Sequence record: PV173775
Length of the DNA stretch: 64,000 nt
Strand: one strand, 5' to 3'
Origin: Escherichia phage GEP001
The notes beneath the pieces were generated by a model. That model was not told the origin of the DNA and did not search any database. It saw only the letters and a program-made list of their open reading frames with translations. Below, piece by piece: positions 43,127 to 63,725 of this stretch (the stretch's first letter is position 1; every line of letters starts with the position of its first letter). The translations under genes and the position numbers were made by a program.

Positions 43127-43127
43127 T

Positions 43128-43484: not shown

Positions 43485-43485
43485 T

Positions 43486-43650: not shown

Positions 43651-43652
43651 AA

Positions 43653-44878: not shown

Positions 44879-44927
44879 GTGTCGTCCTCCTTTAAATTAA
44901 ATATTTATCGCAAATTTTACAAAATTT

Positions 44928-44973: not shown

Positions 44974-44982
44974 GATAATATA

Positions 44983-46322
<1,340 letters not shown>

Positions 46323-46382
46323 CTGCTTATATATTCAAATGATATAATTATTTAACTTATTAATGAATTGAAAGGAAAAATA

Positions 46383-46901
46383 ATGGCATACTTTAATGAA
46401 TGTTCACAACTGATCGAAGGCGCTGATAAAGCTCAAAATGAATACTGGGATATTCTCGGTGATGAAAAAGACCCGCTGCAGGTTATGCTTGATATGCAGA
46501 AATCTTTGCAGGTTCGTTTAGCTAAAGATAAACCTGAATATAACCGTCATCCTGATGATTTGGCTACTGCAGGTGAAGTTGTTGATTGGCTGCGTAATCA
46601 GAAAGATTATATTGACGATGAATTCCGTGAACTTCTAACTTCTCTTGGCGGTATGAGTAATGGCGAAAAAGATGCATCTGCTGTATGGAAGCCTTGGAAA
46701 GCTCAACATGGTGAACGCCGTGAAACTCTAATTACTGATTTGTCTCCACAAGACCAGTTGGAAATTAAATTCGAAATGATTGATATTCTTCATTTCGTTT
46801 TGAACATGTTCCAAGGTCTTGGTCTTACGGCTGAAGAAATCTTTAAACTTTATTATCTGAAAAATGCTGAAAACTTCGCTCGTCAAGACCGAGGTTATTA
46901 A
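46383..46901 (+). CDS. 56: dCTPase/dCTP pyrophosphatase gp56
   Basis: 172 aa from ATG 46383 (AAAGGA SD); MazG-like; matches T4 gp56. Confidence 0.9.
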   Translation: MAYFNECSQLIEGADKAQNEYWDILGDEKDPLQVMLDMQKSLQVRLAKDKPEYNRHPDDLATAGEVVDWLRNQKDYIDDEFRELLTSLGGMSNGEKDASAVWKPWKAQHGERRETLITDLSPQDQLEIKFEMIDILHFVLNMFQGLGLTAEEIFKLYYLKNAENFARQDRGY

Positions 46902-46983
46902 TAGCTCGTTTATTTAAACGACGACTTAAAAGCCGTGAGAATTATTATAAATAATCATGTAATTTAAATAAAAGGAGAATTAC

Positions 46984-47229
46984 ATGGCTAGTACTCGCGG
47001 TTATGTTAATATCAAAACATTTGAGCAGAAATTAGATGGAAATAAGAAAATTGAAGGAAAGGAAATTTCAGTAGCTTTCCCTCTTTATTCTGACGTTCAC
47101 AAAATTTCTGGCGCTCATTACCAGACATTCCCTTCAGAAAAAGCAGCATATACTACTGTATATGAAGAAAATCAGCGTACTGAATGGATTGCTGCAAACG
47201 AAGATTTGTGGAAAGTAACTGGTGGTTAA
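46984..47229 (+). CDS. soc: small outer capsid protein Soc
   Basis: 81 aa; sequence matches T4 Soc; followed by strong terminator. Confidence 0.9.
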   Translation: MASTRGYVNIKTFEQKLDGNKKIEGKEISVAFPLYSDVHKISGAHYQTFPSEKAAYTTVYEENQRTEWIAANEDLWKVTGG

Positions 47230-47236
47230 TAATTCA

Positions 47237-47262
47237 AGGACTCCTTCGGGAGTCCTTTTTTC
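47237..47262 (+). terminator. intrinsic terminator after soc
   Basis: AAGGACTCC TTCG GGAGTCCTT followed by T6. Confidence 0.85.
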
Positions 47263-47272
47263 ATTTTACTGG

Positions 47273-47302
47273 TTTACTTTCCAAAATGAGTATGGTATAA
47301 TA
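47273..47302 (+). promoter_or_regulatory. T4-type early promoter
   Basis: GTTTAC, 18 nt, TATGGTATAAT; terminator-promoter module similar to 4960-5022. Confidence 0.6.
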
Positions 47303-47327
47303 AAATTATCTTATAGAGGAGAGCACT

Positions 47328-47540
47328 ATGTTAAATCGCTGGATTAAACCAAATGAAGACCTTCAGAAGGTTCTTGATAAAGCTATCTCTGATAAATGGG
47401 GTATGAAAAGCTGGGATTGTGATATCGTCACGCATTCATTCATGATGCATGCAGATGGTTCAGTCGAGTTCAATGCTGAAATGCGATACACTGACTGGGG
47501 TGGATTTCAAAGAGTCGAATTTCAAAGAGGCTTTTTGTAA
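47328..47540 (+). CDS. hypothetical protein (70 aa)
   Basis: GAGGAGAG SD downstream of early promoter. Confidence 0.55.
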   Translation: MLNRWIKPNEDLQKVLDKAISDKWGMKSWDCDIVTHSFMMHADGSVEFNAEMRYTDWGGFQRVEFQRGFL

Positions 47541-47881
47541 TGTTTATCTTTAACTGGTTTAAAAATTTCTTTACGGATTTTTTCTTTACAGCTCCTGGAG
47601 AAGGTGTAGTTCCTATTTCAAACGACTACCTTCCTTTAACTGTAGTTGAATATGTTTATATGGGAGATGGAACAGTAGAAGCAGTTACTATGACTTATGA
47701 AGAAGCCCAAGAATATTATAAAAATCCTTGGCGCTGGTCAACACCTACTGCATCATCTAATACACAGAATACACAATCTAGTTCTGATTCATATGACACT
47801 AATGTTCCTGTTCATGTATGGGCGGGCGATTCATGTGGAAGTTCTTGTGATTCTAGTTGTTCATCTACATCTTGTGATTGA
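47540..47881 (+). CDS. hypothetical protein with Ser/Cys-rich C-terminal tail
   Basis: ATG overlapping upstream stop; tail [18 protein letters not shown]. Confidence 0.5.
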
Positions 47882-48375
47882 GGAAAATTATGGAAGCGAT
47901 TTTGTTTGAAATGTATATTAGTAGTAATAGTTTGTCGTTTGCTAAAGACGTTCCAATTACCGTAGCAGTAATGATTGATAAGGGTTATTGTGACCCAATG
48001 TATCTCGTAGAAAATTTCGTTTCAATGCCAGTTCCAGAAGATGCTGAAATAAAACTTAAAAAGATTGGTATTATTGAAACTGTACCAAATATTCCGTTTA
48101 GAGCAATTGAAGCATTTACTAAATCCGAATACATTAATGTTAGCGCAGAACAATATAATGATAAACCTTTATCTTTCTATTCGTATGATTCATTATATAG
48201 TTGGAAAATAGATAAAGGAAATAAATTTATAATTGCGAGTGAAGATGCGTTATCATACTTTATTTCTTCTATATGGAATAGTTTACATCCAAATTTGCTA
48301 AAAATTCATGAATTTGATGATGCTCCTACTGTTGTTTTAGGTAAAACAAATGAAAGTTCTGAAGAAAATGTTTGA
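47878..48375 (+). CDS. hypothetical protein (165 aa)
   Basis: ATGA-type overlap; GAGGAAA SD. Confidence 0.55.
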
Positions 48376-48553
48376 ATGGTTCAATAGACCAAACTCAATG
48401 TACATTGATGATGGTTGGGTTGAACAGGCAAATAAAGAAATGCAGAACGAATCAGAAGAATGGATGAAATCAATGATTAGTGCCGAGAAAGAAAAGAAAT
48501 TAGAACGCTCAGCGCTTAAATTGATGAGAGACATCTATGGGGATAAATCGTGA
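48350..48553 (+). CDS. hypothetical protein (67 aa)
   Basis: overlaps end of upstream ORF. Confidence 0.45.
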
Positions 48554-48706
48554 ACAGAGATATGACGCTAGAAGAGGCCAAGGCTAAAGCAAATGAAGCA
48601 CTGGATTTGCTTCTTAAAATTGGCAGTAAAATGATGGAAGAAAATGAGAAATATATCCAGGAAAACAAAATTCCTGACGGCCCATTAGTAGGCAAGAGGA
48701 AATCAC

Positions 48707-49177
48707 ATGATTGAAGTAGCAAAACTATATTCAATAGAATTTATGTCTAAAGAAGGTAAATCTGTAAATACACTTGACAAAAAGTGCTCATTAATTATTC
48801 CTTTAGCAGAAAATCCGGATATTTTAATTAAAGATATAAAAGAAAGAAAATATCCAGAAGATGTTATTCTAATTATAAAGCATACTGAAGATATTTTGCA
48901 GCATATTGATTCACCATTTTCTTCTTCTGAGGCTTTAACTATCAAAGGCTATAAAAGAGCTCATGAATATGGTCTTTTTGACCTATTTGAAGACGATAAA
49001 GTTAAATTAGCGAGTCAACCTTCTAAAAGTAAAACATTCATTATTGAAGATATTAAAGATATAAATGCATTTGTTAAGATGGTCTGGGCTCATTTTGATG
49101 TTGGACTACGCTGGAGAATGTCCGAAGAAGAAAGAAAGATTATTGAAACTAATCGTTATTTTGGTTTTTATCGCTAG
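48707..49177 (+). CDS. hypothetical protein (156 aa)
   Basis: GAGGAAA SD. Confidence 0.55.
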
Positions 49178-49185
49178 GAATTAAT

Positions 49186-49368
49186 ATGGATTTATTTGAG
49201 ATGTTAGAAGATAATCATTCTACGAATATCCAGAATGATTCTAGTGATTATAAGAAAGAATACCGTATAGTATTACAGAATTATGGAATTGAAGCCCCAG
49301 ATGCTCTTCTAGAAGAACTAGCTTCATACCATCTTGACCCTCCGCCCTGGGCTCCCTGGGCAAAATAA
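49186..49368 (+). CDS. hypothetical acidic protein (60 aa)
   Basis: AGGAA SD; ends in PPPWAPWAK. Confidence 0.45.
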   Translation: MDLFEMLEDNHSTNIQNDSSDYKKEYRIVLQNYGIEAPDALLEELASYHLDPPPWAPWAK

Positions 49369-49379
49369 TTCAAAAAGTT

Positions 49380-49409
49380 GTTTACTTTCCTTCCTAACGA
49401 TGATATGAT
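49380..49409 (+). promoter_or_regulatory. T4-type early promoter upstream of modB
   Basis: GTTTAC, 18 nt, TATGAT. Confidence 0.5.
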
Positions 49410-49435
49410 AGCTTCTGAAGTATATGGAGGCTATC

Positions 49436-50059
49436 ATGATTATTAATCTTGCAGATGTTGAACAGTTATCTATAAAAGCTGAAAGTGTTGATTTTCAATA
49501 TGATATGTATAAAAAGGTCTGTGAAAAATTTACTGATTTCGAGCAGTCAGTTCTTTGGCAATGTATGGAAGCCAAAAAGAATGAAGCTCTTCATCGGCAG
49601 TTGAATAAAATCATTAAAAAGCATTTAACTAAATCACCTTATCAGCTATATCGTGGTATATCAAAATCGACAAAAGAGCTCATTAAAGATTTACAAGTTG
49701 GAGAAGTGTTTTCAACGAATAGAGTAGATTCATTTACTACTAGTTTGCACACAGCATGTGGTTTTTCTTATGTTGAGTATTTCACTGAAATAATATTTCG
49801 CTTAAAAACTGATAAAGCTTTTAATTATTCTGACCATATCAGCGATATTATACTTTCTTCTCCTAATACTGAGTTTAAGTATACATATGAAGATACTGAT
49901 GGATTAGATTCAGAACGTACTGATAACTTAATGATGATTGTGCGTGAACAAGAATGGATGATTCCAATTGGAAAGTATAAAATAACTTCTATTTCAAAAG
50001 AAAAATTACACGATTCATTTGGAACATTTAAAGTGTATGATATTGAGGTAGTTGAATGA
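49436..50059 (+). CDS. modB: ADP-ribosyltransferase ModB
   Basis: 207 aa from ATG 49436 (GGAGG SD); R-S-E ART triad context (YRGIS...STN...E); paralog of adjacent gene. Confidence 0.7.
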   Translation: MIINLADVEQLSIKAESVDFQYDMYKKVCEKFTDFEQSVLWQCMEAKKNEALHRQLNKIIKKHLTKSPYQLYRGISKSTKELIKDLQVGEVFSTNRVDSFTTSLHTACGFSYVEYFTEIIFRLKTDKAFNYSDHISDIILSSPNTEFKYTYEDTDGLDSERTDNLMMIVREQEWMIPIGKYKITSISKEKLHDSFGTFKVYDIEVVE

Positions 50060-50658
50060 AATATTCAGCAATGCAATTAAAAGATTTTAAAATCAAATCA
50101 ATGAATGCATCGGTGCGTGCTTCTATTCGTGAAGAATTACTTTCTGAAGGATTTAATTTATCCGAAATTGAACTTTTAATTCATTGTATTACTAATAAGC
50201 CAGACGATCATTCTTGGTTAAATGAAATAATCAAATCTCGTTTGGAACCAAACGATAAACCTCTTTGGAGAGGTGTTCCAGTTGAGACTAAGCAGGTGTT
50301 AAATCAAGGAATTGATATTATTACATTTGATAAAGTAGTATCAGCTTCATATGATAAAAATATAGCTCTGCATTTTGCTTCTGGATTAGAATACAACACA
50401 CAAGTTATTTTTGAATTCAAAGCTCCTATGGTATTTAATTTTCAGGAGTATGCTATAAAAGCTCTACGTTGTAAAGAATATAGTCCAAGTTTTAAGTTTC
50501 CAGATAGCCATCGCTATCGTAATATGGAATTAGTTTCAGATGAACAAGAAGTAATGATACCAGCTGGAAGTGTATTTAGAATTGCAGATAGATATGAGTA
50601 TAAAAAGTATTCAACATACACTATCTATACTCTTGATTTTGAAGGATTTAATCTATAA
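50056..50658 (+). CDS. modA: ADP-ribosyltransferase ModA
   Basis: 200 aa; ART motifs (LWRGV...SAS...); ATGA overlap with modB. Confidence 0.7.
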   Translation: MKYSAMQLKDFKIKSMNASVRASIREELLSEGFNLSEIELLIHCITNKPDDHSWLNEIIKSRLEPNDKPLWRGVPVETKQVLNQGIDIITFDKVVSASYDKNIALHFASGLEYNTQVIFEFKAPMVFNFQEYAIKALRCKEYSPSFKFPDSHRYRNMELVSDEQEVMIPAGSVFRIADRYEYKKYSTYTIYTLDFEGFNL

Positions 50659-50714
50659 TGGAAGGACTTAGATTCATTATACCATGAAAGTTTTAAAGCA
50701 TTTTTCATAAAGTT

Positions 50715-50744
50715 GTTTACAAGCTGAAGTAAAAATGATATAGT
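50715..50744 (+). promoter_or_regulatory. T4-type early promoter
   Basis: GTTTACAAG, 18 nt, TATAGT. Confidence 0.5.
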
Positions 50745-50773
50745 ATAAGTAGTTAACCGTCCGTGAGAAAAAT

Positions 50774-51520
50774 ATGAAACTATCTAAAAATCAAATTCGT
50801 AAAATTACACGTCGTTTAGAGCATACTCAGGCATCAGCTAAAAGACGTTCTAAAGATTTTAACTTAGACTTCAATTACATTAAGAACATTTTAGATCAGA
50901 AAGTTTGCGCTTACTCGGGAGAACCTTTTGATAATCGTATTGAAGGAGAGAAATTATCATTAGAACGTTTTGATAATAACGTTGGATACATTAAAGGGAA
51001 TGTTATTGCAGTAAAGAAAAAGTATAATACATTTCGTTCTGATTATACTTTAGAAGAGTTGATTGAAAAGCGTGATTTATTTGCTTTGCGAATTGGTCGT
51101 TCATCTGCGAAAAAAGTTCATAAACTAAATTTAGATGAAAAGAAATGGGCTAAAATCAAAAAGACTTATAATCAAATTAAAGCTATACAGAAAAAACGTG
51201 AAAACCGAATTGAGCACATTTCTCAGCTTTCTAAGTCAAAACAAACATCTGACATTAAGCTAACGATTATAGCGCTTAAAGCTCGTATTGATGGTTCTCG
51301 TATAGCAGAAGGCGCTGAAGTTGTTAAATTGAACGTTCTTCTTAAAGGCTCGGATTGGAAAACTGTGAAAAAGTTGTCAGAAGCAGAAATGCAATATGAT
51401 ATGTGTGATAAAATTATTCAAGGTGTAGAGCGGTATCAAAACTTGTCTTTTATTGATAAACTTAAACTGAAAAGAGGATACCCGCTAAATTGTTCAATTT
51501 TTAAACTTATCCGAGGATAA
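50774..51520 (+). CDS. hypothetical protein (248 aa), position of T4 srd
   Basis: basic N-terminus; positional assignment only. Confidence 0.5.
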   Translation: MKLSKNQIRKITRRLEHTQASAKRRSKDFNLDFNYIKNILDQKVCAYSGEPFDNRIEGEKLSLERFDNNVGYIKGNVIAVKKKYNTFRSDYTLEELIEKRDLFALRIGRSSAKKVHKLNLDEKKWAKIKKTYNQIKAIQKKRENRIEHISQLSKSKQTSDIKLTIIALKARIDGSRIAEGAEVVKLNVLLKGSDWKTVKKLSEAEMQYDMCDKIIQGVERYQNLSFIDKLKLKRGYPLNCSIFKLIRG

Positions 51521-51521
51521 T

Positions 51522-51833
51522 ATGTTTTATGTATATGCGATAGTGTATAGAGATAAAGATGGATTTGCGGTGCCTGTTCCTCTTGATGAACATCGTCCTG
51601 CTATATTTTTTGAAAGGGAGATTGCTGATAAAGTATTTACAACTCTTAAAGAGCAGTATCAACTAGCTTTAGGTATGGGAATTCCGAGATTAGTTGAGAC
51701 TCCACGCAAGTTTTGGTTTAATAAAATAGAAGTTAAACATGTTAAGCCTGATGTAGACACACAAAGATTATATCGGCGAATTTTAGATACTGGGCGTATT
51801 GTTAGTATACCAATTGCAGGGAATTTACGATGA
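51522..51833 (+). CDS. hypothetical protein (103 aa)
   Basis: GAGGA SD; coupled to dda. Confidence 0.55.
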   Translation: MFYVYAIVYRDKDGFAVPVPLDEHRPAIFFEREIADKVFTTLKEQYQLALGMGIPRLVETPRKFWFNKIEVKHVKPDVDTQRLYRRILDTGRIVSIPIAGNLR

Positions 51834-53149
51834 CATTTGATGATTTGACAGAAGGCCAGAAAAATGCCTTTAACATCGTTATGAGGGCTATCAAAGAAAA
51901 GAAACATCATGTAACTATTAATGGACCTGCCGGTACTGGTAAAACTACTCTTACTAAGTTCATCATTGAAGCTTTAATATCTACAGGCGAAACTGGAATT
52001 ATTTTAGCAGCTCCTACACATGCAGCTAAAAAGATTCTTTCAAAACTATCAGGGAAAGAAGCAAGTACTATTCACAGTATTCTCAAAATTAACCCAGTAA
52101 CATACGAAGAAAACGTTCTTTTTGAACAAAAAGAAGTACCGGATTTGGCTAAATGCAGAGTATTAATCTGCGACGAAGTGTCAATGTATGATAGAAAGCT
52201 ATTTAAAATTCTGCTTTCAACTATCCCGCCGTGGTGTACTATAATTGGAATAGGCGATAATAAGCAAATTAGACCTGTTGACCCAGGAGAAAACACTGCT
52301 TATATCAGTCCATTCTTTACGCACAAAGATTTTTATCAGTGTGAACTCACTGAAGTTAAACGCAGTAATGCTCCTATTATTGATGTAGCTACTGATGTTC
52401 GTAATGGTAAGTGGATTTATGATAAAATTGTTGACGGGCATGGAGTACGTGGATTTACTGGTGATACCGCTTTACGCGATTTTATGGTAAATTATTTTTC
52501 AATCGTAAAATCACTAGATGATTTGTTTGAAAATCGTGTAATGGCATTTACGAATAAATCTGTTGATAAGTTAAATAGCATTATTCGTAAAAAGATTTTT
52601 GAAACTGATAAAGACTTTATTGTCGGTGAAATTATTGTAATGCAGGAACCATTAATTAAAACATATAAAATTGATGGAAAGCCTGTGTCAGAAATTATTT
52701 TTAATAACGGACAATTAGTTCGTATTATAGAAGCAGAGTATACATCAACATTTGTTAAAGCTCGTGGTGTTTCTGGAGAATATCTAATTCGTCATTGGGA
52801 TTTAACAGTAGAAACTTACGGCGATGATGAATATTATCGTGAAAAGATTAAAATAATTTCATCTGATGAAGAGCTGTATAAGTTTAACTTATTTTTAGGT
52901 AAAACGGCAGAAACTTACAAAAATTGGAATAAAGGTGGAAAAGCTCCGTGGAGTGATTTTTGGGATGCTAAATCACAGTTTAGTAAAGTGAAAGCACTTC
53001 CTGCATCAACATTCCATAAAGCTCAGGGCATGTCTGTAGATCGTGCTTTTATCTATACGCCTTGTATTCATTATGCAGATGCTGAACTAGCGCAGCAGCT
53101 TCTTTATGTTGGTGTCACTCGTGGTCGTTATGATGTGTTTTATGTATGA
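51830..53149 (+). CDS. dda: Dda DNA helicase (SF1B)
   Basis: 439 aa; Walker A GPAGTGKTT; Walker B ICDEVSM; matches T4 Dda. Confidence 0.9.
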   Translation: MTFDDLTEGQKNAFNIVMRAIKEKKHHVTINGPAGTGKTTLTKFIIEALISTGETGIILAAPTHAAKKILSKLSGKEASTIHSILKINPVTYEENVLFEQKEVPDLAKCRVLICDEVSMYDRKLFKILLSTIPPWCTIIGIGDNKQIRPVDPGENTAYISPFFTHKDFYQCELTEVKRSNAPIIDVATDVRNGKWIYDKIVDGHGVRGFTGDTALRDFMVNYFSIVKSLDDLFENRVMAFTNKSVDKLNSIIRKKIFETDKDFIVGEIIVMQEPLIKTYKIDGKPVSEIIFNNGQLVRIIEAEYTSTFVKARGVSGEYLIRHWDLTVETYGDDEYYREKIKIISSDEELYKFNLFLGKTAETYKNWNKGGKAPWSDFWDAKSQFSKVKALPASTFHKAQGMSVDRAFIYTPCIHYADAELAQQLLYVGVTRGRYDVFYV

Positions 53150-53170
53150 TTAAATTTGAGGAAGCTATTC

Positions 53171-53416
53171 GTGGAAATAACTAAAGACCAGTTTTATCTA
53201 CTTCAAGATAAAGTGAGTGAAATTTATGAAATAGCTTATAGTAAAAATCGCAAAAACGTGAAAATTGAATCAGGCAAGTTAATGCTTCAATTGGAAGAAA
53301 TTGAACGAGATTTGATTGCGTTAGAATTCTTTTGTGGTGAAGTTAAAACTGTTACAATCAGTGATTACATTTTAGGTGAAATTAGCCATCTTTATAAGGC
53401 GGTTATTAATGATTGA
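53171..53416 (+). CDS. hypothetical protein (about 81 aa), tandem paralog A
   Basis: GTG 53171 with GAGGAAG SD (track starts at TTG 53156); similar to next ORF. Confidence 0.45.
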   Translation: MEITKDQFYLLQDKVSEIYEIAYSKNRKNVKIESGKLMLQLEEIERDLIALEFFCGEVKTVTISDYILGEISHLYKAVIND

Positions 53417-53651
53417 ATTAAGTTTGCATCAGTTTAAATCTCTTATGACAAATGTTAAAGCTGTCATTCAAGAAAATTCAGGACCTGATAATGTTACTAT
53501 TCGCGAAAAAGCTTTAAAGATAGTATACAGTCTTGAAGAGATACAAAAAGATATTGAATCTATGGCAAAATTTATTGATGAGCCCATTAATAAAGTTTAT
53601 ATCCAAGATTATACTGTAGGTCAAATTCGCGATTTAGCGAGGAAAATTTAA
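53409..53651 (+). CDS. hypothetical protein (80 aa), tandem paralog B
   Basis: ATG overlapping upstream stop; shares LEEI...D...YxxGxI pattern with paralog A. Confidence 0.45.
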   Translation: MIELSLHQFKSLMTNVKAVIQENSGPDNVTIREKALKIVYSLEEIQKDIESMAKFIDEPINKVYIQDYTVGQIRDLARKI

Positions 53652-54334
53652 TGTTTGATTTTATTATAGATTTTGAAACAATGGGAAGCGGTGAAAAGGC
53701 AGCTGTTATTGATTTGGCTGTTATTGCCTTTGACCCTAATCCAGAAGTAGTTGAAACGTTTGATGAATTAGTTTCACGCGGCATTAAAATCAAATTTGAT
53801 TTAAAAAGCCAAAAAGGACATCGTCTTTTTACTAAAAGCACTATCGAATGGTGGAAAAATCAGTCTCCTGAAGCTCGAAAAAATATTGCACCGTCAGATG
53901 AAGATGTAAGCACTATCGATGGTATTGTAAAATTTAATGATTACATCAATGTACATAACATCGATCCTTGGAAATCTCAAGGCTGGTGCCGTGGAATGTC
54001 GTTTGATTTTCCAATTTTAGTCGATCTCATTCGTGATATTCAACGTCTTAATGGCGTTTCTGAGAATGAACTTGACACATTTAAGTTAGAACCATGTAAA
54101 TTCTGGAATCAGCGTGATATTCGTACCAGAATTGAAGCACTTCTCCTTGTTCGTGATATGACCACGTGTCCTCTTCCAAAGGGAACTTTAGATGGATTCG
54201 TTGCACATGATTCTATTCATGACTGTGCGAAAGACATCCTGATGATGAAGTATGCTTTGCGATATGCTATGGGTCTTGAAGATGCTCCGTCAGAGGAAGA
54301 ATGCGATCCTCTATCTCTTCCAACAAAACGATAA
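53651..54334 (+). CDS. dexA: exonuclease A DexA (DEDD family)
   Basis: 227 aa; N-terminal DFETMG exo motif; matches T4 DexA. Confidence 0.9.
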   Translation: MFDFIIDFETMGSGEKAAVIDLAVIAFDPNPEVVETFDELVSRGIKIKFDLKSQKGHRLFTKSTIEWWKNQSPEARKNIAPSDEDVSTIDGIVKFNDYINVHNIDPWKSQGWCRGMSFDFPILVDLIRDIQRLNGVSENELDTFKLEPCKFWNQRDIRTRIEALLLVRDMTTCPLPKGTLDGFVAHDSIHDCAKDILMMKYALRYAMGLEDAPSEEECDPLSLPTKR

Positions 54335-54340
54335 AAAGTT

Positions 54341-54370
54341 GTTTACTTCCTCGGTTAGTTGTGGTATTAT
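54341..54370 (+). promoter_or_regulatory. T4-type early promoter
   Basis: GTTTAC, 18 nt, TGTGGTATTAT; paralogous to 44928 cassette. Confidence 0.55.
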
Positions 54371-54397
54371 AACACCATAGCTACTGAGGATAATAAA

Positions 54398-54901
54398 ATG
54401 AAAATTTATCGTGTTGAATCATCTTTTAGTATTCTTAATTATGAAGATGCTATAACAATACGTCGAAATCTTTGTGTTCAAATAACACCGTACAGGAGTA
54501 TAATAGATTCATGGAGCGAAGAGTGGTTATTACACGTAGGTTATGACAGACCTAATTTTATGCATCATAGCGATAATAATAATAAAAGAATTCCTTTACC
54601 ACACGAAGATAAACTATTAGTTAAAAACGCTAATATAGTAATTAATACTAAGTTCAAGAAAGATTATGTTGGAGTAGAATATCATATTCCAGGATGGTTT
54701 ATAGCTCTTTATCATTTTGCTTTCGCTAGTGAATATGATATGATGAGATGGTTCACACGAGAAGAGCGGGAAGAATTATCTTCTAAAGGATTTTATCTCG
54801 CTGTGTATGAAGTTCCAGATGATCAAGTTATCATTGGCGGGCACCAAGTAATGTTCCGCAAATCGCATGCTGAACTCATAGATTTTATTGAAATGAGATA
54901 A
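54398..54901 (+). CDS. hypothetical protein (167 aa)
   Basis: GAGGATAATAAAATG start after early promoter. Confidence 0.5.
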   Translation: MKIYRVESSFSILNYEDAITIRRNLCVQITPYRSIIDSWSEEWLLHVGYDRPNFMHHSDNNNKRIPLPHEDKLLVKNANIVINTKFKKDYVGVEYHIPGWFIALYHFAFASEYDMMRWFTREEREELSSKGFYLAVYEVPDDQVIIGGHQVMFRKSHAELIDFIEMR

Positions 54902-54903
54902 TT

Positions 54904-55446
54904 ATGAAATTTAATTATAATCCTGAATACATACCAAATCCGGTAGCTAAACTGATTGATTTTGATGTTGTAAGCACTTATGTATGCCCTGTTAAACCAC
55001 TGGAAATTAAGGAATCTACTATGACTACCGCTATTGAAATCGGCAAAACCTACAAACTAGTTGAACCTGAAATTAAAACCAATGCCTTGATTTCCGGCTA
55101 TAAAACTTTGACTGGTGTTTTTGGCGAAGGCGAATTTACTGTTGAAGACTTTGAAAAAAGTAAATGGTTTACTAAATCTTATATTGTCCACGGTCGTCGT
55201 TTAGACAATAACAAAATAGAGAAAATCCTGGTTTATGAAGCAGAGTTCATCCTGTTCCAAGAAGTTGAAGAACAAGACCCTACAGACCTTCTAACTCGTG
55301 CGGTAGCTATCAAGACCCCATTTGTTTCGGTCTGTGGTTGGGTAACAGACCAGTGGATTGAAGATGGTGTTGAACTTCTGAACGTTGTTCATGCAGGTGA
55401 TTTTAGCGTAGTACCTCGTAGTACGGTGGTAGCTATTTTGAATTAA
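54904..55446 (+). CDS. hypothetical protein (180 aa), paralog of 55523..56020
   Basis: C-terminal ...TDQWIEDGVEL.N.V..G....VP motif shared with downstream ORF. Confidence 0.55.
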   Translation: MKFNYNPEYIPNPVAKLIDFDVVSTYVCPVKPLEIKESTMTTAIEIGKTYKLVEPEIKTNALISGYKTLTGVFGEGEFTVEDFEKSKWFTKSYIVHGRRLDNNKIEKILVYEAEFILFQEVEEQDPTDLLTRAVAIKTPFVSVCGWVTDQWIEDGVELLNVVHAGDFSVVPRSTVVAILN

Positions 55447-55448
55447 TA

Positions 55449-55484
55449 GTTTACAAACTCTTGGGACCAGAGTATAATGGTCCC
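55449..55484 (+). promoter_or_regulatory. early promoter with inverted repeat flanking -10
   Basis: GTTTAC 55449-54, TATAAT 55473-78; arms GGGACC (55463-68) and GGTCCC (55479-84). Confidence 0.55.
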
Positions 55485-55522
55485 GCGGAGTATAAAATCT
55501 TTTTAACAAGTGAGAGATAACT

Positions 55523-56020
55523 ATGATTATTAATATTGGTGAAATTGCTCGTGTATCTGATAAATCTCGTTCTAAAGCAGCAGGAAAATTGGTCGAAATT
55601 GTAAGCATTCAGCTTAAACACGGCGTTAAAGATGAAGATTCTGAAGTAAAAGTGCGTATCATTCCTAAAGATGGAAAGTCTAAACCTCAGTTTGGCTATG
55701 TTCGTGCGAAATTTCTTGAATCTGCGTTTTTGAAAGCTGTTCCCGCTAAAGGAATTGAGACGATTGATACTTCACATGTAGGTGTAGACTTTAAGTGGAA
55801 ACTCGGTCAGGCTATTAAGTTCATTGCTCCTTATGAATTCGAATTTACCGAAGATGAGGAAGGGGTTGTTCAAAAACATCGTACTCGTGCTATGTGTGCA
55901 TACATTACCGATCAATGGGTAGAAGATGGCGTTAAGTTGTACAACGCGGTATTTTTAGGAACATACAAAGTCATTCCTGAAAGTTGGATTAAACACTATA
56001 GCAAAGCTCGCTGTGCATAA
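55523..56020 (+). CDS. hypothetical protein (165 aa), paralog of 54904..55446
   Basis: GAGAGATAA SD; C-terminal ITDQWVEDGVKLYNAV motif. Confidence 0.55.
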   Translation: MIINIGEIARVSDKSRSKAAGKLVEIVSIQLKHGVKDEDSEVKVRIIPKDGKSKPQFGYVRAKFLESAFLKAVPAKGIETIDTSHVGVDFKWKLGQAIKFIAPYEFEFTEDEEGVVQKHRTRAMCAYITDQWVEDGVKLYNAVFLGTYKVIPESWIKHYSKARCA

Positions 56021-56053
56021 AGTTTAAAATTTTTTCATAAAACTATATACATC

Positions 56054-56090
56054 AGTAGTTGATTATGGTACTATATCAATATCAACTACT
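56054..56090 (+). promoter_or_regulatory. promoter-like element with perfect 10-bp inverted repeat around -10
   Basis: arms AGTAGTTGAT (56054-63) and ATCAACTACT (56081-90) flank TATGGTACTATATCAAT; no clear GTTTAC. Confidence 0.4.
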
Positions 56091-56117
56091 GATACAGAAA
56101 ACAACTTGGAGAATAAA

Positions 56118-56387
56118 ATGGAAAACTTAATTATCATCGAACAATCTTTCAACGATTATGGTATGGCTTATGGTTATCGTGCGATAATGGAAGATTCTCG
56201 TGGATGTGTTATCGATATTGCTGAATGTAAAGATTTACTGCAGCTTTTGAAGATTGTTCGCAAAAATTGGGATTGTGAAAACATTAAAGTTCGTGTTGTA
56301 ACGGAAGAAGAAACTGTTTTTCATGATGTAAAATTTGCCAAAGGTGCTGCTACTCTTCTGAAACGCATCGCTCCACTGTTCAATTAA
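56118..56387 (+). CDS. hypothetical protein (89 aa)
   Basis: GGAGAATAAAATG initiation motif downstream of inverted-repeat promoter. Confidence 0.5.
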   Translation: MENLIIIEQSFNDYGMAYGYRAIMEDSRGCVIDIAECKDLLQLLKIVRKNWDCENIKVRVVTEEETVFHDVKFAKGAATLLKRIAPLFN

Positions 56388-56400
56388 TGAGGAAATTGTA

Positions 56401-56616
56401 ATGAAACGTAAAATTGTTCAGAACTGCACTAATGACGAATTTGAAGATGTATTATTTGATCCAGATTTGGTAGTGGTTCAAAAGGAACATACCGTTAAGT
56501 TTACTCACTTGACTTCGGTTTATGTGTATGAAAAGGTTGGTGATAAACAGCCGATTTACGGTGTATTCCGTGAAATTACTGAAGATGGCACAACTTACTG
56601 GAAGGAAATTTATTAA
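56401..56616 (+). CDS. hypothetical protein (71 aa)
   Basis: GAGGAAA SD. Confidence 0.5.
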
Positions 56617-57035
56617 TGGCTATTAAATTTGAAGTTAATAAATGGTATCAATTTAAAAATAAACAAGCTCAAGAAAATTTTATTAAAGACCATACTGATA
56701 ACGGAATCTATGCACGACGTTTAGGTATGGAACCTTTTAAAATTTTAGATGTTGACTATTACGGGCGTCCTACTAAAATTGTGACATCTACTGGCACAAT
56801 TGGATATTCAACATGTGGTACAGTCATTGACGAAAACTTTATCTGGCTCTCTACTAACGAAGCTGAGTTCTTTGATGAAGTTGAAAATCCATACCAGGCT
56901 GCTGAAGAACAAGAGCAGGAAGAGCAAGAACAAATAGAAGATTTCACAGAATTCCCGGTAATGAAAGTTACTATTGAAAATAATGAACAGGCATGGTCTT
57001 TGTATCAGATGTTGAAAGCACATTTTAAGGAATAA
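56616..57035 (+). CDS. hypothetical protein with acidic EQEQEEQEQ tract (139 aa)
   Basis: ATG overlapping upstream stop. Confidence 0.5.
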
Positions 57036-57037
57036 TT

Positions 57038-57214
57038 ATGCCAATGTATGATTATAAATGCCAATCCGAAGATTGCGGGCATGAATATGAAAAAATTAAA
57101 AAGATTTCTGAACGAGAAAATGATGTTTGCCCTAAATGTCATCGTTTGTCTACTCGTCGGCCTTCTGCTCCTAAGCATGTGAATGGTGGATTTTACGACT
57201 TACTTAAAGGGTAA
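57038..57214 (+). CDS. FmdB-type zinc-ribbon protein (58 aa)
   Basis: MPMYDYKCQSEDCGHEYE...CPKC matches the MPxYxYxCxxCG zinc-ribbon pattern; not in ORF track. Confidence 0.5.
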   Translation: MPMYDYKCQSEDCGHEYEKIKKISERENDVCPKCHRLSTRRPSAPKHVNGGFYDLLKG

Positions 57215-57216
57215 TT

Positions 57217-57588
57217 ATGTTTAAAATTGGTAAGAAATATCGTGTTCGCGAAGGTGAAGAAAAGAAATATCTACTTTCTTCTATTTATAGGAATGGTTCT
57301 ATTAATGCCGTAATATCTACAAGCGAATTTATCGTTGAAGATATGAAAGGCCATAATGTTACAATGATTAGTACAGCATCTGGAAATGATGGAAAAATTC
57401 TTCACAGTTTTCAGAGTAATGTTCTAATTTATGATGAAGAATTTGACTTCTTCGAAGAAGTTCCTGAAGATTTTGATTTTGAATGCACCATCACTATGAA
57501 ATCTGGTGACCCTCTTTCATTTACGGTTAAAGATGAAAGAAGTCGCTTGAGAATTATTAGTCTCCTTCAAGCCATTAAATTTGAGTGA
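57217..57588 (+). CDS. hypothetical protein (123 aa)
   Basis: AAAGGG SD; 2 nt after upstream stop. Confidence 0.55.
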   Translation: MFKIGKKYRVREGEEKKYLLSSIYRNGSINAVISTSEFIVEDMKGHNVTMISTASGNDGKILHSFQSNVLIYDEEFDFFEEVPEDFDFECTITMKSGDPLSFTVKDERSRLRIISLLQAIKFE

Positions 57589-57592
57589 AATT

Positions 57593-57853
57593 ATGAAATA
57601 TGTTAATCGTTCTATCGCGGCATTAGTATTAGCAGTATCTTTAGTAGGATGTACTGATGCTGATAATGCAACCAAAGTTTTGTCTTCAAGTGGGTTTACT
57701 AATATTGAAATCACTGGATACAATTGGTTTGGTTGCTCTGAAAATGATTTCCAACACACTGGATTTCGTGCTATTGGACCTACCGGGCAAAAAGTAGAAG
57801 GAACCGTGTGTTCTGGTCTATTCTTCAAGGATTCGACTATCCGTTTTAAATAA
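57593..57853 (+). CDS. lipoprotein (86 aa)
   Basis: signal peptide ending LVGC lipobox; ATG 57593 within track ORF. Confidence 0.5.
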   Translation: MKYVNRSIAALVLAVSLVGCTDADNATKVLSSSGFTNIEITGYNWFGCSENDFQHTGFRAIGPTGQKVEGTVCSGLFFKDSTIRFK

Positions 57854-57870
57854 AAGGCCTTCGGGCCTTT
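57853..57870 (+). terminator. UUCG hairpin
   Basis: AAAGGCC TTCG GGCCTTT; downstream context resembles 25416-25460. Confidence 0.5.
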
Positions 57871-57922
57871 AGCTTTATGATTACCGGAGTATAATATTCC
57901 CGAAACCAAACGAGGATAAGTG

Positions 57923-59740
57923 ATGATTAAGAATGAAATTAAAATTCTGAGCGATATTGAACATATCAAAAAGCGTAGCGGCATGTACATTGGTTCTTCT
58001 GCTAATGAAATGCATGAGCGCTTTCTGTTTGGTAAATGGGAAAGTGTTCAGTATGTACCTGGTCTTGTTAAGCTTATTGATGAAATTATCGATAACTCAG
58101 TAGATGAAGGTATTCGTACTAAGTTTAAATTCGCAAATAAAATTAATGTTACCATTAAAAATAATCAGGTAACAGTTGAAGATAACGGTCGTGGTATTCC
58201 ACAAGCGATGGTTAAAACACCTACCGGTGAAGAAATTCCTGGTCCTGTTGCTGCCTGGACTATTCCAAAAGCAGGTGGTAACTTTGGTGATGATAAAGAA
58301 CGCGTCACCGGTGGTATGAATGGTGTTGGTTCTAGTTTAACTAACATTTTTTCTGTGATGTTTGTCGGTGAAACTGGCGATGGTCAAAATAATATTGTTG
58401 TTCGTTGTTCAAATGGCATGGAAAATAAATCATGGGAAACTATTCCTGGAAAATGGAAAGGAACTCGCGTTACTTTCATTCCTGATTTTATGTCATTTGA
58501 AACTAATGAGCTATCTCAAGTTTATCTTGACATTACGTTAGATCGTCTCCAGACACTTGCAGTAGTTTATCCTGATATTCAATTTACCTTTAATGGTAAA
58601 AAGGTTCAGGGTAATTTTAAGAAATATGCACGCCAATATGATGAACACGCCATCGTTCAAGAACAAGAAAACTGTTCTATTGCGGTTGGTCGTTCACCGG
58701 ACGGTTTTCGTCAATTAACGTACGTCAATAACATTCATACTAAGAATGGTGGCCATCACATTGACTGCGTTATGGATGATATTTGTGAAGACCTTATTCC
58801 ACAAATCAAACGTAAGTTCAAAATTGATGTAACTAAAGCACGTGTTAAAGAATGTTTGACTATCGTTATGTTTGTTCGTGATATGAAAAACACGCGATTT
58901 GACTCTCAAACTAAAGAGCGTCTGACTTCTCCATTTGGTGAAATCCGTAGTCATATTCAGCTTGATGCTAAAAAGATTTCACGTGCTATTTTAAATAATG
59001 AAGCAATTTTAATGCCAATTATTGAAGCTGCCTTGGCTCGTAAATTGGCGGCAGAAAAAGCAGCAGAAACTAAAGCAGCTAAAAAGGCTTCTAAAGCTAA
59101 GGTTCATAAACATATTAAAGCGAATCTTTGTGGTAAAGATGCTGACACTACTCTTTTCTTGACTGAGGGTGATTCTGCTATCGGATATCTTATTGATGTT
59201 CGTGATAAAGAACTTCATGGCGGTTATCCATTGCGTGGTAAAGTTCTCAACAGTTGGGGTATGTCATATGCTGATATGCTTAAAAACAAAGAACTGTTTG
59301 ATATTTGCGCAATCACTGGATTAGTTCTTGGTGAAAAAGCCGAAAACTTGAATTATCATAATATTGCTATTATGACCGATGCTGACCATGATGGTCTAGG
59401 AAGCATTTATCCTTCTTTGCTCGGATTTTTTAGTAATTGGCCAGAACTGTTTGAACAAGGAAGAATTCGCTTTGTCAAAACTCCTGTAATCATCGCTCAG
59501 GTCGGTAAAAAACAAGAATGGTTTTATACAGTCGCTGAATATGAGAGTGCTAAAGATGCTCTACCTAAACATAGCATCCGTTATATTAAGGGACTTGGCT
59601 CTTTGGAAAAATCTGAATATCGTGAGATGATTCAAAATCCAGTATATGATGTTGTTAAACTTCCTGAGAATTGGAAAGAGCTTTTTGAAATGCTCATGGG
59701 AGATAATGCTGACCTTCGTAAAGAATGGATGAGCCAGTAG
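57923..59740 (+). CDS. 39: DNA topoisomerase II large subunit (gene 39, continuous with gene 60-equivalent region)
   Basis: 605 aa from ATG 57923 (GAGGA SD); GHKL ATPase motifs; single ORF, no separate gene 60 or bypass gap. Confidence 0.9.
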   Translation: MIKNEIKILSDIEHIKKRSGMYIGSSANEMHERFLFGKWESVQYVPGLVKLIDEIIDNSVDEGIRTKFKFANKINVTIKNNQVTVEDNGRGIPQAMVKTPTGEEIPGPVAAWTIPKAGGNFGDDKERVTGGMNGVGSSLTNIFSVMFVGETGDGQNNIVVRCSNGMENKSWETIPGKWKGTRVTFIPDFMSFETNELSQVYLDITLDRLQTLAVVYPDIQFTFNGKKVQGNFKKYARQYDEHAIVQEQENCSIAVGRSPDGFRQLTYVNNIHTKNGGHHIDCVMDDICEDLIPQIKRKFKIDVTKARVKECLTIVMFVRDMKNTRFDSQTKERLTSPFGEIRSHIQLDAKKISRAILNNEAILMPIIEAALARKLAAEKAAETKAAKKASKAKVHKHIKANLCGKDADTTLFLTEGDSAIGYLIDVRDKELHGGYPLRGKVLNSWGMSYADMLKNKELFDICAITGLVLGEKAENLNYHNIAIMTDADHDGLGSIYPSLLGFFSNWPELFEQGRIRFVKTPVIIAQVGKKQEWFYTVAEYESAKDALPKHSIRYIKGLGSLEKSEYREMIQNPVYDVVKLPENWKELFEMLMGDNADLRKEWMSQ

Positions 59741-59769
59741 TTTACTTTACCACAAGGATGTGGTATAAT
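59740..59769 (+). promoter_or_regulatory. T4-type early promoter
   Basis: GTTTACTTTACCACAAGGATGTGGTATAAT; near-identical to 12965-12994. Confidence 0.6.
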
Positions 59770-59794
59770 TAATTAGGCAAATGAGGATATTGAA

Positions 59795-59998
59795 ATGAAA
59801 TCATATAAAGTAAATTTAGAACTTTTTGATAAAGCAGTTCATCGAGAATATAGAATCATTCAACGCTTTTTCGATATGGGAGAAGCCGAAGAGTTTAAAA
59901 ACCGCTTTAAGAATATTAGAGATAAAATTCAATCCGACACCGCAACTAAAGATGAACTACTAGAAGTTGCCGAAGTTATTAAACGCAATATGAATTAA
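59795..59998 (+). CDS. hypothetical protein (67 aa)
   Basis: GAGGA SD after early promoter; between 39 and rIIA. Confidence 0.5.
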
Positions 59999-60008
59999 TG
60001 AGGAAATT

Positions 60009-62186
60009 ATGATTATCACCACTGAAAAAGAAACAATTCTTGGTAATGGTTCTAAATCAAAAGCATTTAGCATCACAGCGTCTCCTAAAGTATTTAAAAT
60101 TCTGTCATCTGATTTGTATACAAACAAGATTCGCGCAGTGGTTCGTGAATTGATTACCAATATGATTGATGCCCATGCTCTTAATGGAAATCCTGAAAAA
60201 TTTATCATTCAAGTTCCAGGACGATTAGATCCGCGATTTGTTTGCCGAGATTTTGGTCCAGGTATGAGCGATTTTGATATTCAGGGTGATGATAATTCTC
60301 CTGGGTTGTATAATTCATACTTTAGTTCATCTAAGGCTGAATCTAATGATTTCATTGGTGGATTTGGTTTAGGTTCTAAATCTCCGTTTAGTTATACTGA
60401 TACATTTAGTATTACTTCATATCATAAAGGTGAAATTCGTGGTTATGTAGCTTACATGGATGGTGACGGTCCGCAGATTAAACCTACATTCGTAAAAGAA
60501 ATGGGTCCAGACGATAAAACTGGCATTGAAATCGTAGTTCCGGTTGAAGAAAAAGACTTTAGAAACTTTGCTTATGAAGTTTCTTATATCATGCGACCAT
60601 TCAAAGATTTGGCTATTATTAATGGTCTTGACCGCGAAATTGATTATTTTCCGGATTTTGATGACTATTACGGTGTAAATCCAGAAAGATACTGGCCAGA
60701 TCGTGGTGGATTGTATGCTATCTATGGCGGTATTGTTTATCCTATTGATGGCGTTATTAGAGACCGTAACTGGTTAAGCATTCGCAATGAAGTGAATTAT
60801 ATTAAGTTTCCAATGGGTTCACTTGATATTGCTCCATCGCGTGAGGCTCTTTCGCTGGATGATCGTACTCGTAAAAATATTATTGAGCGTGTTAAAGAGC
60901 TCAGTGAAAAGGCATTTAATGAAGATGTAAAACGATTTAAAGAATCTACATCTCCTCGTCATACATACCGTGAATTGATGAAGATGGGATATTCTGCTCG
61001 AGATTATATGATTAGTAATTCGGTCAAATTCACGACTAAAAATCTGTCATATAAAAAGATGCAGAGCATGTTTGAACCTGACAGTAAGTTATGCAATGCA
61101 GGGGTTGTGTATGAAGTAAATCTTGACCCTCGACTGAAACGCATTAAGCAAAGTCATGAAACTTCAGCCGTTGCATCAAGTTATCGTCTGTTTGGTATTA
61201 ATACGACAAAAATTAATATTGTTATTGATAATATTAAAAATCGTGTTAATATTGTCCGTGGATTAGCGCATGCGTTAGATGATAGCGAATTTAATAACAC
61301 CTTAAATATTCATCATAACGAGCGTCTTCTGTTTATTAATCCGGAAGTAGAATCGCAAATTGATTTACTTCCTGATATTATGGCAATGTTTGAAAGTGAT
61401 GAAGTTAACATTCATTATTTGTCAGAAATTGAAGCTTTAGTTAAAAGTTATATTCCAAAGGCAGTTAAAAGTAAAGCTCCTCGTCCTAAAGCTGCTACTG
61501 CATTTAAGTTCGAAATTAAAAACGGGCGCTGGGAAAAAGAGGAACTGTTTACGCTCACATCAGAAGCAGATGAAATTACTGGTTATGTAGCATACATGCA
61601 TCGTTCTGATATTTTCTCTATGGATGGTACTACATCGCTTTGTCATCCATCTACGAATATTTTGATTCGTATGGCTAATCTTATTGGCATTAATGAATTT
61701 TATGTTATTCGTCCGCTTTTGCAGAAAAAGGTAAAAGAACTTGGTCAGTGCCAATGTATTTTTGAAACTTTGCGTGATTTATATGTAGATGCTTTTGATG
61801 ATGTAGATTATGATAAGTATGTAGGTTATTCAAGTTCAGCTAAACGATATATTGATAAAATTATCAAGTATCCTGAGTTAGATTTTATGATGAAGTACTT
61901 CAGTGTAGATGAAGTTTCTGAAGAATATACACGACTCGCTAATATGGTTAGTTCATTACAGGGTGTATATTTCAACGGTGGAAAAGATACCATCGGTCAT
62001 GACATCTGGACAGTAACTAATCTTTTTGATGTATTATCAAATAATGCTTCAAAAAACAGTGATAAAATGGTTGCTGAGTTTACCAAGAAATTCCGTATTG
62101 TTTCCGACTTCATCGGTTATCGCAATTCTTTAAGTGATGATGAAGTTTCCCAAATCGCTAAAACTATGAAGGCCCTTGCGGCCTAA
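60009..62186 (+). CDS. rIIA: rIIA protein
   Basis: 725 aa; N-terminal GHKL-like ATPase region; matches T4 rIIA. Confidence 0.95.
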
Positions 62187-62197
62187 TAAGGAAAATT

Positions 62198-63136
62198 ATG
62201 TACAATATTAAATGCCTGACCAAAAACGAACAAGCTGAAATTGTCAAACTGTATTCAAGTGGTAATTATACTCAGCAGGAATTGGCTGATTGGCAAGGTG
62301 TATCGGTTGATACCATCCGTCGTGTTTTGAAAAATGCTGAAGAAGCTGAGCGCTCCAAAGTTACCATTAGCGGTGACATTACAGTTGAAGTTAAGAGTGA
62401 TGCAGTTATTGCTCCAGTTGCTAAATCTGACATTATTTGGAATGCATCTAAAAAATTCATTTCAATTACTGTTGATGGCGTAACTTATAACGCAACTCCT
62501 AATACTCATTCAAACTTCCAGGAAATTCTTAATCTGCTTGTTGCAGATAAATTGGAAGAAGCGGCACAAAAAATTAATGTTCGTCGCGCTGTTGAAAAAT
62601 ATATTTCCGGCGATGTTCGAATTGAAGGTGGAAGCCTGTTCTATCAAAATATTGAATTGCGGTCTGGTTTAGTTGATCGTATTCTCGATTCGATGGAAAA
62701 AGGTGAAAACTTTGAATTTTATTTTCCATTCCTGGAAAATCTGCTGGAAAACCCAAGCCAAAAAGCAGTATCTCGACTCTTTGATTTCTTGGTAGCAAAC
62801 GATATTGAAATTACAGAAGACGGCTACTTCTATGCTTGGAAAGTAGTTCGCAGCAATTACTTTGACTGTCATTCAAATACTTTTGATAACAGCCCTGGTA
62901 AAGTAGTTAAAATGCCACGTACTCGTGTGAATGACGATGATACACAAACTTGTTCTCGTGGTCTGCATGTGTGTTCTAAATCTTATATTCGTCACTTTGG
63001 TAGTTCAACCAGTCGAGTTGTAAAAGTTAAAGTGCATCCGCGTGATGTAGTATCAATTCCGATTGATTACAACGATGCTAAAATGCGTACCTGCCAATAC
63101 GAAGTAGTTGAAGACGTTACTGAACAATTTAAATAA
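62198..63136 (+). CDS. rIIB: rIIB protein
   Basis: 312 aa; matches T4 rIIB; follows rIIA. Confidence 0.95.
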   Translation: MYNIKCLTKNEQAEIVKLYSSGNYTQQELADWQGVSVDTIRRVLKNAEEAERSKVTISGDITVEVKSDAVIAPVAKSDIIWNASKKFISITVDGVTYNATPNTHSNFQEILNLLVADKLEEAAQKINVRRAVEKYISGDVRIEGGSLFYQNIELRSGLVDRILDSMEKGENFEFYFPFLENLLENPSQKAVSRLFDFLVANDIEITEDGYFYAWKVVRSNYFDCHSNTFDNSPGKVVKMPRTRVNDDDTQTCSRGLHVCSKSYIRHFGSSTSRVVKVKVHPRDVVSIPIDYNDAKMRTCQYEVVEDVTEQFK

Positions 63137-63150
63137 GGGCTTCGGCCCTT
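63135..63150 (+). terminator. UUCG hairpin after rIIB
   Basis: AAGGGC TTCG GCCCTT. Confidence 0.5.
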
Positions 63151-63164
63151 AACTAAGGAAAATT

Positions 63165-63359
63165 ATGTTAGGTTATCAAGCACGAGTAAAAGAAGAATAC
63201 GATCAATTAATGCTCAAAATTAATGCACTGAGCAAATTTTTAGAAAGCACAAAGTTTCTAACGATTAATGAAGTTGAGCAAGAACTGCTGCTTTCACAAT
63301 TTACCTCAATGAAATCTTATGCAGATTGTTTAGAAAAAAGAATTGCACAATTCAAATAA
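63165..63359 (+). CDS. hypothetical protein (64 aa)
   Basis: AAGGAAAA SD; bracketed by two UUCG hairpins. Confidence 0.5.
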   Translation: MLGYQARVKEEYDQLMLKINALSKFLESTKFLTINEVEQELLLSQFTSMKSYADCLEKRIAQFK

Positions 63360-63362
63360 AAT

Positions 63363-63385
63363 AAGGGCTTCGGCCCTTTTGTTTT
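63363..63385 (+). terminator. intrinsic terminator
   Basis: AAGGGC TTCG GCCCTT followed by TTGTTTT. Confidence 0.65.
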
Positions 63386-63395
63386 AAGGGAAATT

Positions 63396-63725
63396 ATGAT
63401 TTATTGTATGAATATCGGTGATTCCGACATAAAAGAGATTAATCTACACGGAAATCATCACGCTAATATTGTGTACTGCAATAAATTTGAGTTTGGTCAC
63501 GAAAAACTTGGGTTTCTTTACTGTAATGATGTTATAGTCATGGATAAAAAGGAACTCGATGAACTCGACCGTGAGTCTTTAGATGAAAATGACAGAATTT
63601 ATTATGGTACTCTTAAAGTATATAACGCTTATCTCAGCGGTAAAAAGGAAAGTCTAAATGCAGAAAACGAATCCGGGTTTACAGAGACTATTTCAGATTC
63701 CGACATTTACCCTATCGAACAATGA
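63396..63725 (+). CDS. hypothetical acidic protein (109 aa)
   Basis: AAGGGAAA SD. Confidence 0.5.
   Translation: MIYCMNIGDSDIKEINLHGNHHANIVYCNKFEFGHEKLGFLYCNDVIVMDKKELDELDRESLDENDRIYYGTLKVYNAYLSGKKESLNAENESGFTETISDSDIYPIEQ

Follow-up and report, generated by a model that had tools for sequence, protein, structure and literature searches.

Here we report that the window, meaning the whole 64,000-nt stretch of Escherichia phage GEP001 DNA that was analysed (sequence record PV173775), is almost certainly Tequatrovirus (T-even) DNA from the early/replication region, with unoccupied alleles at three loci that are colonised by homing-endonuclease elements in T4. Uninterrupted gene 39, uninterrupted nrdD and directly neighbouring 56 and soc are the usual, documented state of this phage group, and T4 is the exception. 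The analysis covered gene structures, colinearity, sequence identities, missing cassette, intron and endonuclease genes, and allele frequency among relatives; none of its results speaks against this reading. All positions are those of the window unless a reference genome is named.

Classification and general features

The window was compared by blastn with phages T4 (NC_000866), T2 (AP018813) and T6 (AP018814), and by megablast with 50,697 phage records. It is colinear with T4, T2 and T6 at a nucleotide identity of at least about 90% across the early region, as expected of a Tequatrovirus. Between 53 and 56 kb of the 64 kb align to the three references at 93.5-94.7% (over aligned blocks, T2 94.7%, T6 93.8% and T4 93.5%). 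Against positions 1-70000 of T4, window positions 1..62197 correspond to T4 63595..1 in colinear blocks of 84-98% identity; the T4 map runs opposite to the window + strand, and after T4 position 1 comes rIIB. Hundreds of Tequatrovirus genomes match the window at 95-99% identity in the megablast search, in which the best identity over long stretches is ~97.5-98% and none exceeds about 98%. The nearest records are vB_EcoM_P8, BMB16, SH-1 and P922.

The initial annotation, made without alignment, had described a T2/T6-like genome lacking several T4 mobile insertions. Whole-window alignment places the gene 39 and nrdD loci in colinearity with T2 and T6, and T4 colinearity that includes a gene 60 and an nrdD intron was not seen by blastn, protein alignment or Rfam search. 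The insertions are missing as described, but the phage is neither T2 nor T6, and its 56-soc locus differs from both.

Gene 39 and the type IIA topoisomerase

Gene 39 (57923..59740, +) encodes an undivided GyrB-like large subunit of the phage type IIA DNA topoisomerase. The ORF extends from 57920/57923 to 59740; the ATG at 57923 gives 605 codons and a stop, and the product begins MIKNEIK / MIKNEIKILSDIEH like T4 gp39. Two ORFs of 605 codons, this one and nrdD, are far beyond chance in a genome of 34% G+C. The ORF listing thus agrees with the earlier description of gene 39 as one uninterrupted reading frame, and protein alignment bears out the suggestion that its C-terminus corresponds to gp60, the last 129 residues being equivalent to gp60 32-160.

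The protein is 99.5% identical to T2 gp39 and 99.7% identical to T6 gp39 without gaps over 605 aa. T2 gp39 differs by F70L, T173D and T324M and T6 gp39 by T324M and Q526H, that is, by two to three substitutions, and the synonymous nucleotide divergence of the T2 and T6 genes from the window is about 4%. In T2 and T6 gene 39 is also 1818 nt long and occupies the corresponding position, ahead of rIIA.1 and rIIA; the blastn alignment of T2 to the window is unbroken over 55439-62186 here and over 17036-20195 at nrdD. In the window rIIA.1 (59795..59998, +; 67 aa, phrog_1683) stands directly 3' of gene 39, with no 60.1, mobA or gene 60 between the two, and is followed by rIIA (60009..62186, +; 725 aa). 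Gene 52 lies outside the window.

Profile searches are consistent with a complete GyrB-type chain. Residues 4-604 align to positions 13-630 of the 641 positions of the NCBIfam GyrB profile; of the Pfam families, HATPase_c, DNA_gyraseB and TOPRIM_C scored above their cut-offs, and Toprim and DNA_gyraseB_C below. Chain C of PDB 8YLU matches residues 1-605 with 1385 bits. This entry is the T6 Topo II, one of four structures with T6 gp39 (8YLU, 8YO1, 8YO5 and 8YOD), and the T2 and T6 enzymes are two-subunit topoisomerases (PMC11461880). The Toprim metal ligands named for T6, E415, D486 and D488 (PMC11461880), are all kept on the single gene 39 chain, in a continuous Toprim domain as in T2/T6. The product comprises GHKL ATPase, transducer, Toprim and C-terminal tail in one chain, and gp39 with gp52 would make up a type IIA topoisomerase of A2B2 composition, like that of T2/T6, with no third subunit, split or bypass. 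T6 biochemistry and structures (PMC11461880) suggest that the enzyme would be active with gp52 as its only partner.

The unoccupied MobA-cassette site

The blastn comparison leaves 1117 nt of T4 (2794-3910) without an equivalent in the window; this stretch of T4 comprises the 3' extension of 39, mobA, 60.1, the beginning of 60 and the 50-nt bypass. The flanking blocks are 57591-59340, equivalent to T4 5661-3911, and 59405-62197, equivalent to T4 2793-1. Between them the window has only 64 nt (59341..59404, +), which are Toprim coding sequence (ENLNYHNIAIMTDADHDG-LGS) and constitute the unoccupied site of the MobA cassette. The peptide encoded here is that of T2 and T6; two synonymous bases of the 64 differ from T2, one of them within the 36 nt around the bypass point. 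The MobA element has been described as replacing a 64-nt stretch (bioRxiv 10.1101/2022.08.31.505936), with which the stretch and the extension sizes found here agree; the cassette of MobA and 50-nt bypass goes back to Bonocora et al. 2011, as summarised in the same preprint.

The T4 bypass point maps between 59395 (Gly491, GGT) and 59396 (Leu492, CTA). Where T4 reads GAT GGA, a 50-nt gap and TTA GGT, the window reads GAT GGT CTA GGA without a break, and the GGA pair of take-off and landing sites is missing together with the gap. A search of the whole window for the take-off/bypass hairpin, allowing as many as 3 mismatches, gave no match. At the protein level residues 1-473 correspond to gp39 1-473, followed by ENLNYHN..., and residues 474-605 correspond to gp60 from about residue 29, identity with gp60 starting at NY (gp60 residues 32-33). 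When T4 gp39(1-473) is joined to gp60(32-160), 591 of the 605 residues are identical to the window protein. Neither the 43-aa C-terminal extension of T4 gp39 nor the N-terminal extension of gp60 (about 30 aa) appears in the protein alignment. A T4-type split 39/60 with a MobA-bypass cassette is ruled out, given that neither a mobA (HNH) ORF or pseudogene within the Toprim-coding region nor the extensions or the gap are present.

The T4 reference itself varies in this region: 2794..3910 of NC_000866 measures 1117 nt, against 1106 nt in other T4 stocks, RB55 and RB59, at 98.7% identity. In NC_000866 mobA is annotated only as a defective 114-nt CDS; in T4T, RB55 and RB59 it is annotated as a homing endonuclease.

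The anaerobic ribonucleotide reductase locus

The large subunit of the anaerobic (class III) ribonucleotide reductase is encoded by an intronless nrdD (17595..19412, +; 605 aa). Gene 49 (17125..17598, +), for endonuclease VII of 157 aa, lies immediately 5', and the start of nrdG (19409..19879, +), for the 156-aa activase, overlaps the nrdD stop. The initial annotation had read nrdD as a single 605-aa ORF with an intact glycyl-radical motif, and both are confirmed, the single ORF by the ORF listing and the motif by RRTCGY near the C-terminus, which is accompanied by a Cys4 zinc ribbon (CFTCGS...CSICG); the last 70 residues are identical to T4. Two NrdD profiles match well above their cut-offs (NF006732, 904 bits against 657; TIGR02487, 564 bits against 326). 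NrdD would be translated directly, without RNA splicing, to give a glycyl-radical class III reductase activated by the adjacent NrdG.

The nrdD genes of T2 and T6 are likewise 1818 nt long. T4 NrdD (gene nrdD, or sunY), spliced by removal of 1033 nt, is also 605 aa and is 98.8% identical to the window ORF. By blastn, window 17036-18130 corresponds to T4 46944-45850 and 18133-19429 to T4 44814-43518, and T4 44815-45849, with the 1033-nt group I intron and I-TevII, is missing from the window. The empty insertion site lies between 18132 and 18133; its sequence, GCTTATGAATATGAAGTAAATAC, is the intronless allele of T2 type and is identical to T2 over 90 nt. No Rfam family, group I introns included, was detected in the window at gathering thresholds, while the T4 control gave RF00028 with 105 bits. 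The Rfam result and the 1033 nt missing at 18132/18133 rule out a T4-type, intron-containing nrdD.

Downstream, T4 mobC (about 600 nt between nrdD and nrdG) is missing as well, the next aligned block beginning at nrdG. Between the same two genes T6 has an ORF of 244 aa (33932..34666) with a homing-endonuclease annotation; this ORF is missing from the window. Elsewhere, the match of the nrdD junction query to vB_EcoM_CE1 (ON229909.1) stops at the insertion point and falls in two places of this record. The record does not belong to those with the T4 intron; another insertion may be present in its nrdD, at this site or close by.

The 56-soc locus

Gene 56 (46383..46901, +) encodes a dCTPase of 172 aa. 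The ORF lister places its start at TTG 46368; the ATG at 46383 is used here and matches T4 and T2 gp56. A spacer of 82 nt follows (46902..46983, +), with the late-promoter motif TATAAATA; annotated relatives also place a late promoter in this spacer. The next gene is soc (46984..47229, +), for the small outer capsid protein of 81 aa (Pfam Soc, E=1e-54). Directly after gene 56 come the late promoter of soc and soc itself. The two genes had been described as abutting; they are adjacent neighbours, but by their coordinates the 82-nt spacer keeps them from abutting literally.

The T4 segF (15611-16306, 696 nt), whose intronless homing was described by Belle et al. 2002 as summarised in PMC2330249, is missing between 56 and soc, and gene order and orientation are the same as in T4, T2 and T6. 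A T4-type locus, in which a GIY-YIG ORF overlaps the end of 56, was not found, the 82-nt spacer standing in its place. The T2/T6-type locus was not found either: in T2 and T6 two small ORFs of about 64-69 aa occupy 329 nt (T2 14259-14587), a segment that is missing from the window. Because T2 and T6 carry this segment and the window does not, the window has a third, empty allele at 56-soc, common to phages such as BP32, JK08 and P8. A 261-nt junction query recovered the short form in one piece from BP32 (100%), JK08, P8, Shinka, ELT1, PST, SH7 and others; the remaining relatives have the two-piece T2/T6 form or the T4 form. ASO78A also has the form with the 82-nt spacer.

Other mobile elements

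All seven T4 mobile insertions of the interval are missing, namely mobA, segF, segA, mobB, mobC, the nrdD intron and mobD. This follows from the alignment blocks, which skip mobB, mobC and mobD, and segA along with b-gt. The earlier list of missing insertions accordingly holds, but blastn shows the set to be larger than was listed, with mobB, mobC, mobD and segA also missing.

In the place of T4 b-gt and segA, the window has a beta-glucosyl-HMC-alpha-glucosyltransferase gene of T2/T6 type (37152..38000, +; 282 aa, phrog_842 E=2e-89, Pfam TAGT). With this enzyme the phage should presumably make gentiobiosyl-type rather than T4-type HMC glucosylation. The position of T4 mobD (6534..7519, +) is taken up, as in T6, by two ORFs: one is y05I-like, for a putative transcription factor of 173 aa with matches to Pfam T4_y05I_N and T4_y05I_C, and the other, of 153 aa, is membrane-protein-like (phrog_944).

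The window does carry one endonuclease gene (25594..26142, +; 182 aa), which is free-standing and GIY-YIG-like and separates a-gt from gene 47. The product matches phrog_10820 with E=4e-89, phrog_314 ('homing endonuclease'), and Pfam GIY-YIG with E=7e-4, below the cut-off. T4, T2 and T6 all lack the 594-nt insert (25601-26194); a 901-nt query around the ORF was covered to 80% or more by 65 of 523 related records. T2 and T6 for their part have an insert of about 860 nt between 46 and 46.1 (T2 26398..27250; T6 25989..26843), consisting of one 284-aa ORF in T6 and of two ORFs in T2, as if disrupted; the window lacks it. Since the 46-46.1 insert of T2/T6 and the nrdD-nrdG insert of T6 are missing here, each T-even phage has its own set of insertions.

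Other local differences

A hypothetical ORF of 186 aa (44983..45543, +) lies between the primase gene 61 and dam, the last base of its stop being the first base of the dam ATG. Relatives annotate it as hypothetical only, and its family is narrow, with 10 representatives among 1.8 billion proteins. T2 has a homologue and T4 has none; T6 lacks both the ORF and dam at this place. D72...E85-x-K87, a typical PD-(D/E)XK nuclease motif, is invariant in all six aligned members. Matches to DpnII and type II restriction enzymes were below threshold (Pfam E=0.002, best family member 8e-5), as was the PADLOC REase_II match (8e-5, below the curated cut-off). PDB sequence and profile searches with the ORF gave no match, and its single-sequence AlphaFold model is poor (mean pLDDT 50). 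DpnII is a GATC-specific type II restriction enzyme, and the Dam of T2-type phages is normally treated as an orphan methylase. The motif and the position next to dam make the ORF a candidate, if a doubtful one, for an active nuclease partner of the phage Dam, in what would be a compact GATC restriction-modification-like or selfish module.

At 42494..43484 (+) a 210-aa homologue of T4 61.2 precedes an ORF of 118 aa that stands where T4 has 61.1. The match of this second ORF to Pfam AdfA (anti-DarT factor A; E=2e-8) is confined to the C-terminal half of the family. T2 has the 118-aa AdfA-like form without the 210-aa form, and the 118-aa ORF may be a duplicated or variant anti-defence gene. A further 600 nt at 41542..42141 (+), between 61.4/dmd and sp, have no blastn counterpart in T4, T2 or T6; they contain ORFs of 84 aa (phrog_2980, a goF-like family of mRNA metabolism modulators) and 63 aa (phrog_37915).

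Frequency of the alleles among relatives

Allele frequencies were obtained with 251-nt queries spanning the gene 39 and nrdD junctions. Another search total, 479 records with 80% or more of its query covered, was not taken as a count of undivided genes, since T4-type records would enter it through joined pieces. With the junction queries, the gene 39 site is undivided in 454 of the 498 matching records and the nrdD intron site uninterrupted in 618 of 693. The T4 MobA cassette is found in 43 records, the nrdD intron in 27 (25 of them complete) and segF in 78 (50 near complete); many of these element-bearing records are T4 stocks, and percentages derived from any of the counts are approximate, because the database includes redundant records such as the many T4 laboratory stocks. 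The counts agree with previous descriptions of T4 as an outlier in endonuclease load, most T-even genomes having few endonuclease insertions (PMC2988022), and of the two-subunit topoisomerase of T2 and T6 (PMC11461880).

Origin of the empty sites

Empty alleles dominate among the relatives, which makes sites that were never invaded, or have long been empty, the simpler reading. An ancestor might instead have carried the MobA cassette, the nrdD intron and segF and lost them secondarily, for example by recombination with an empty allele or by precise deletion. Gain and loss of MobA-type elements is documented, with 'hit and run' cases in Aeromonas phages among the examples (bioRxiv 10.1101/2022.08.31.505936), recombination among T-even phages is rampant (PMC2993671), and exchange for an empty allele would be invisible in the sequence. 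As relics of a MobA cassette, however, the window shows neither C- or N-terminal extension peptides nor the bypass hairpin, and no intron remnant was found by Rfam; the peptide of the 64-nt segment equals that of T2/T6, and empty alleles are the large majority among relatives. Secondary loss is, in our view, quite unlikely.

The empty sites could also be an artefact, through misassembly or the collapse of a T4 sequence with its insertions, but we found no point in support of this, and the flanks differ from T4 by about 5%. Hundreds of independent genomes have these junctions intact, and in some of them the identity is 100% over 251 nt. Junction-spanning matches at all three loci (Salmonella phage F13076, 100%, at gene 39; HY01, 99.6%, at nrdD; BP32 at 56-soc) rule the artefact out, and its probability is negligible.

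That the window is phage T2 or T6 itself is just as extremely improbable: gene lengths and order at 39-rIIA.1-rIIA and 49-nrdD-nrdG are T2-like and the glucosyltransferase is of T2/T6 type, but blastn alignment to both phages rules identity out, with nucleotide identities of only 94.7% and 93.8%, many indels (the 329-nt 56-soc segment, the 594 nt at 25601-26194 and a further 600 nt at 41542-42141), a lack of the T2/T6 insert at 46-46.1, and other isolates matching best at about 97.5-98%.

Conclusions

The structure of 39, nrdD and 56-soc in this phage is nothing new and belongs to the textbook polymorphism of the T-even phages. The undivided 39, the lack of an nrdD intron and the lack of segF in T2/T6 became known between the late 1980s and the early 2000s, and the classic experiments on marker exclusion and homing in T4 x T2 crosses rest on the uninterrupted T2/T6 alleles. 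For annotation, gene 39 is to be entered as one 605-aa product with no gene 60 or programmed bypass, and nrdD as a single exon. Every one of the seven sites that T4 has for endonuclease genes and the intron in this region is empty, and in this sense the phage can be regarded as a natural recipient. On the strength of their sequence identity to T2, the empty sites would be susceptible to MobA, I-TevII and SegF, which would cut and convert them in a mixed infection with a phage bearing these elements. Such conversion would produce localized marker exclusion, as is known from T4 x T2 crosses (PMC2330249; PMC2988022).
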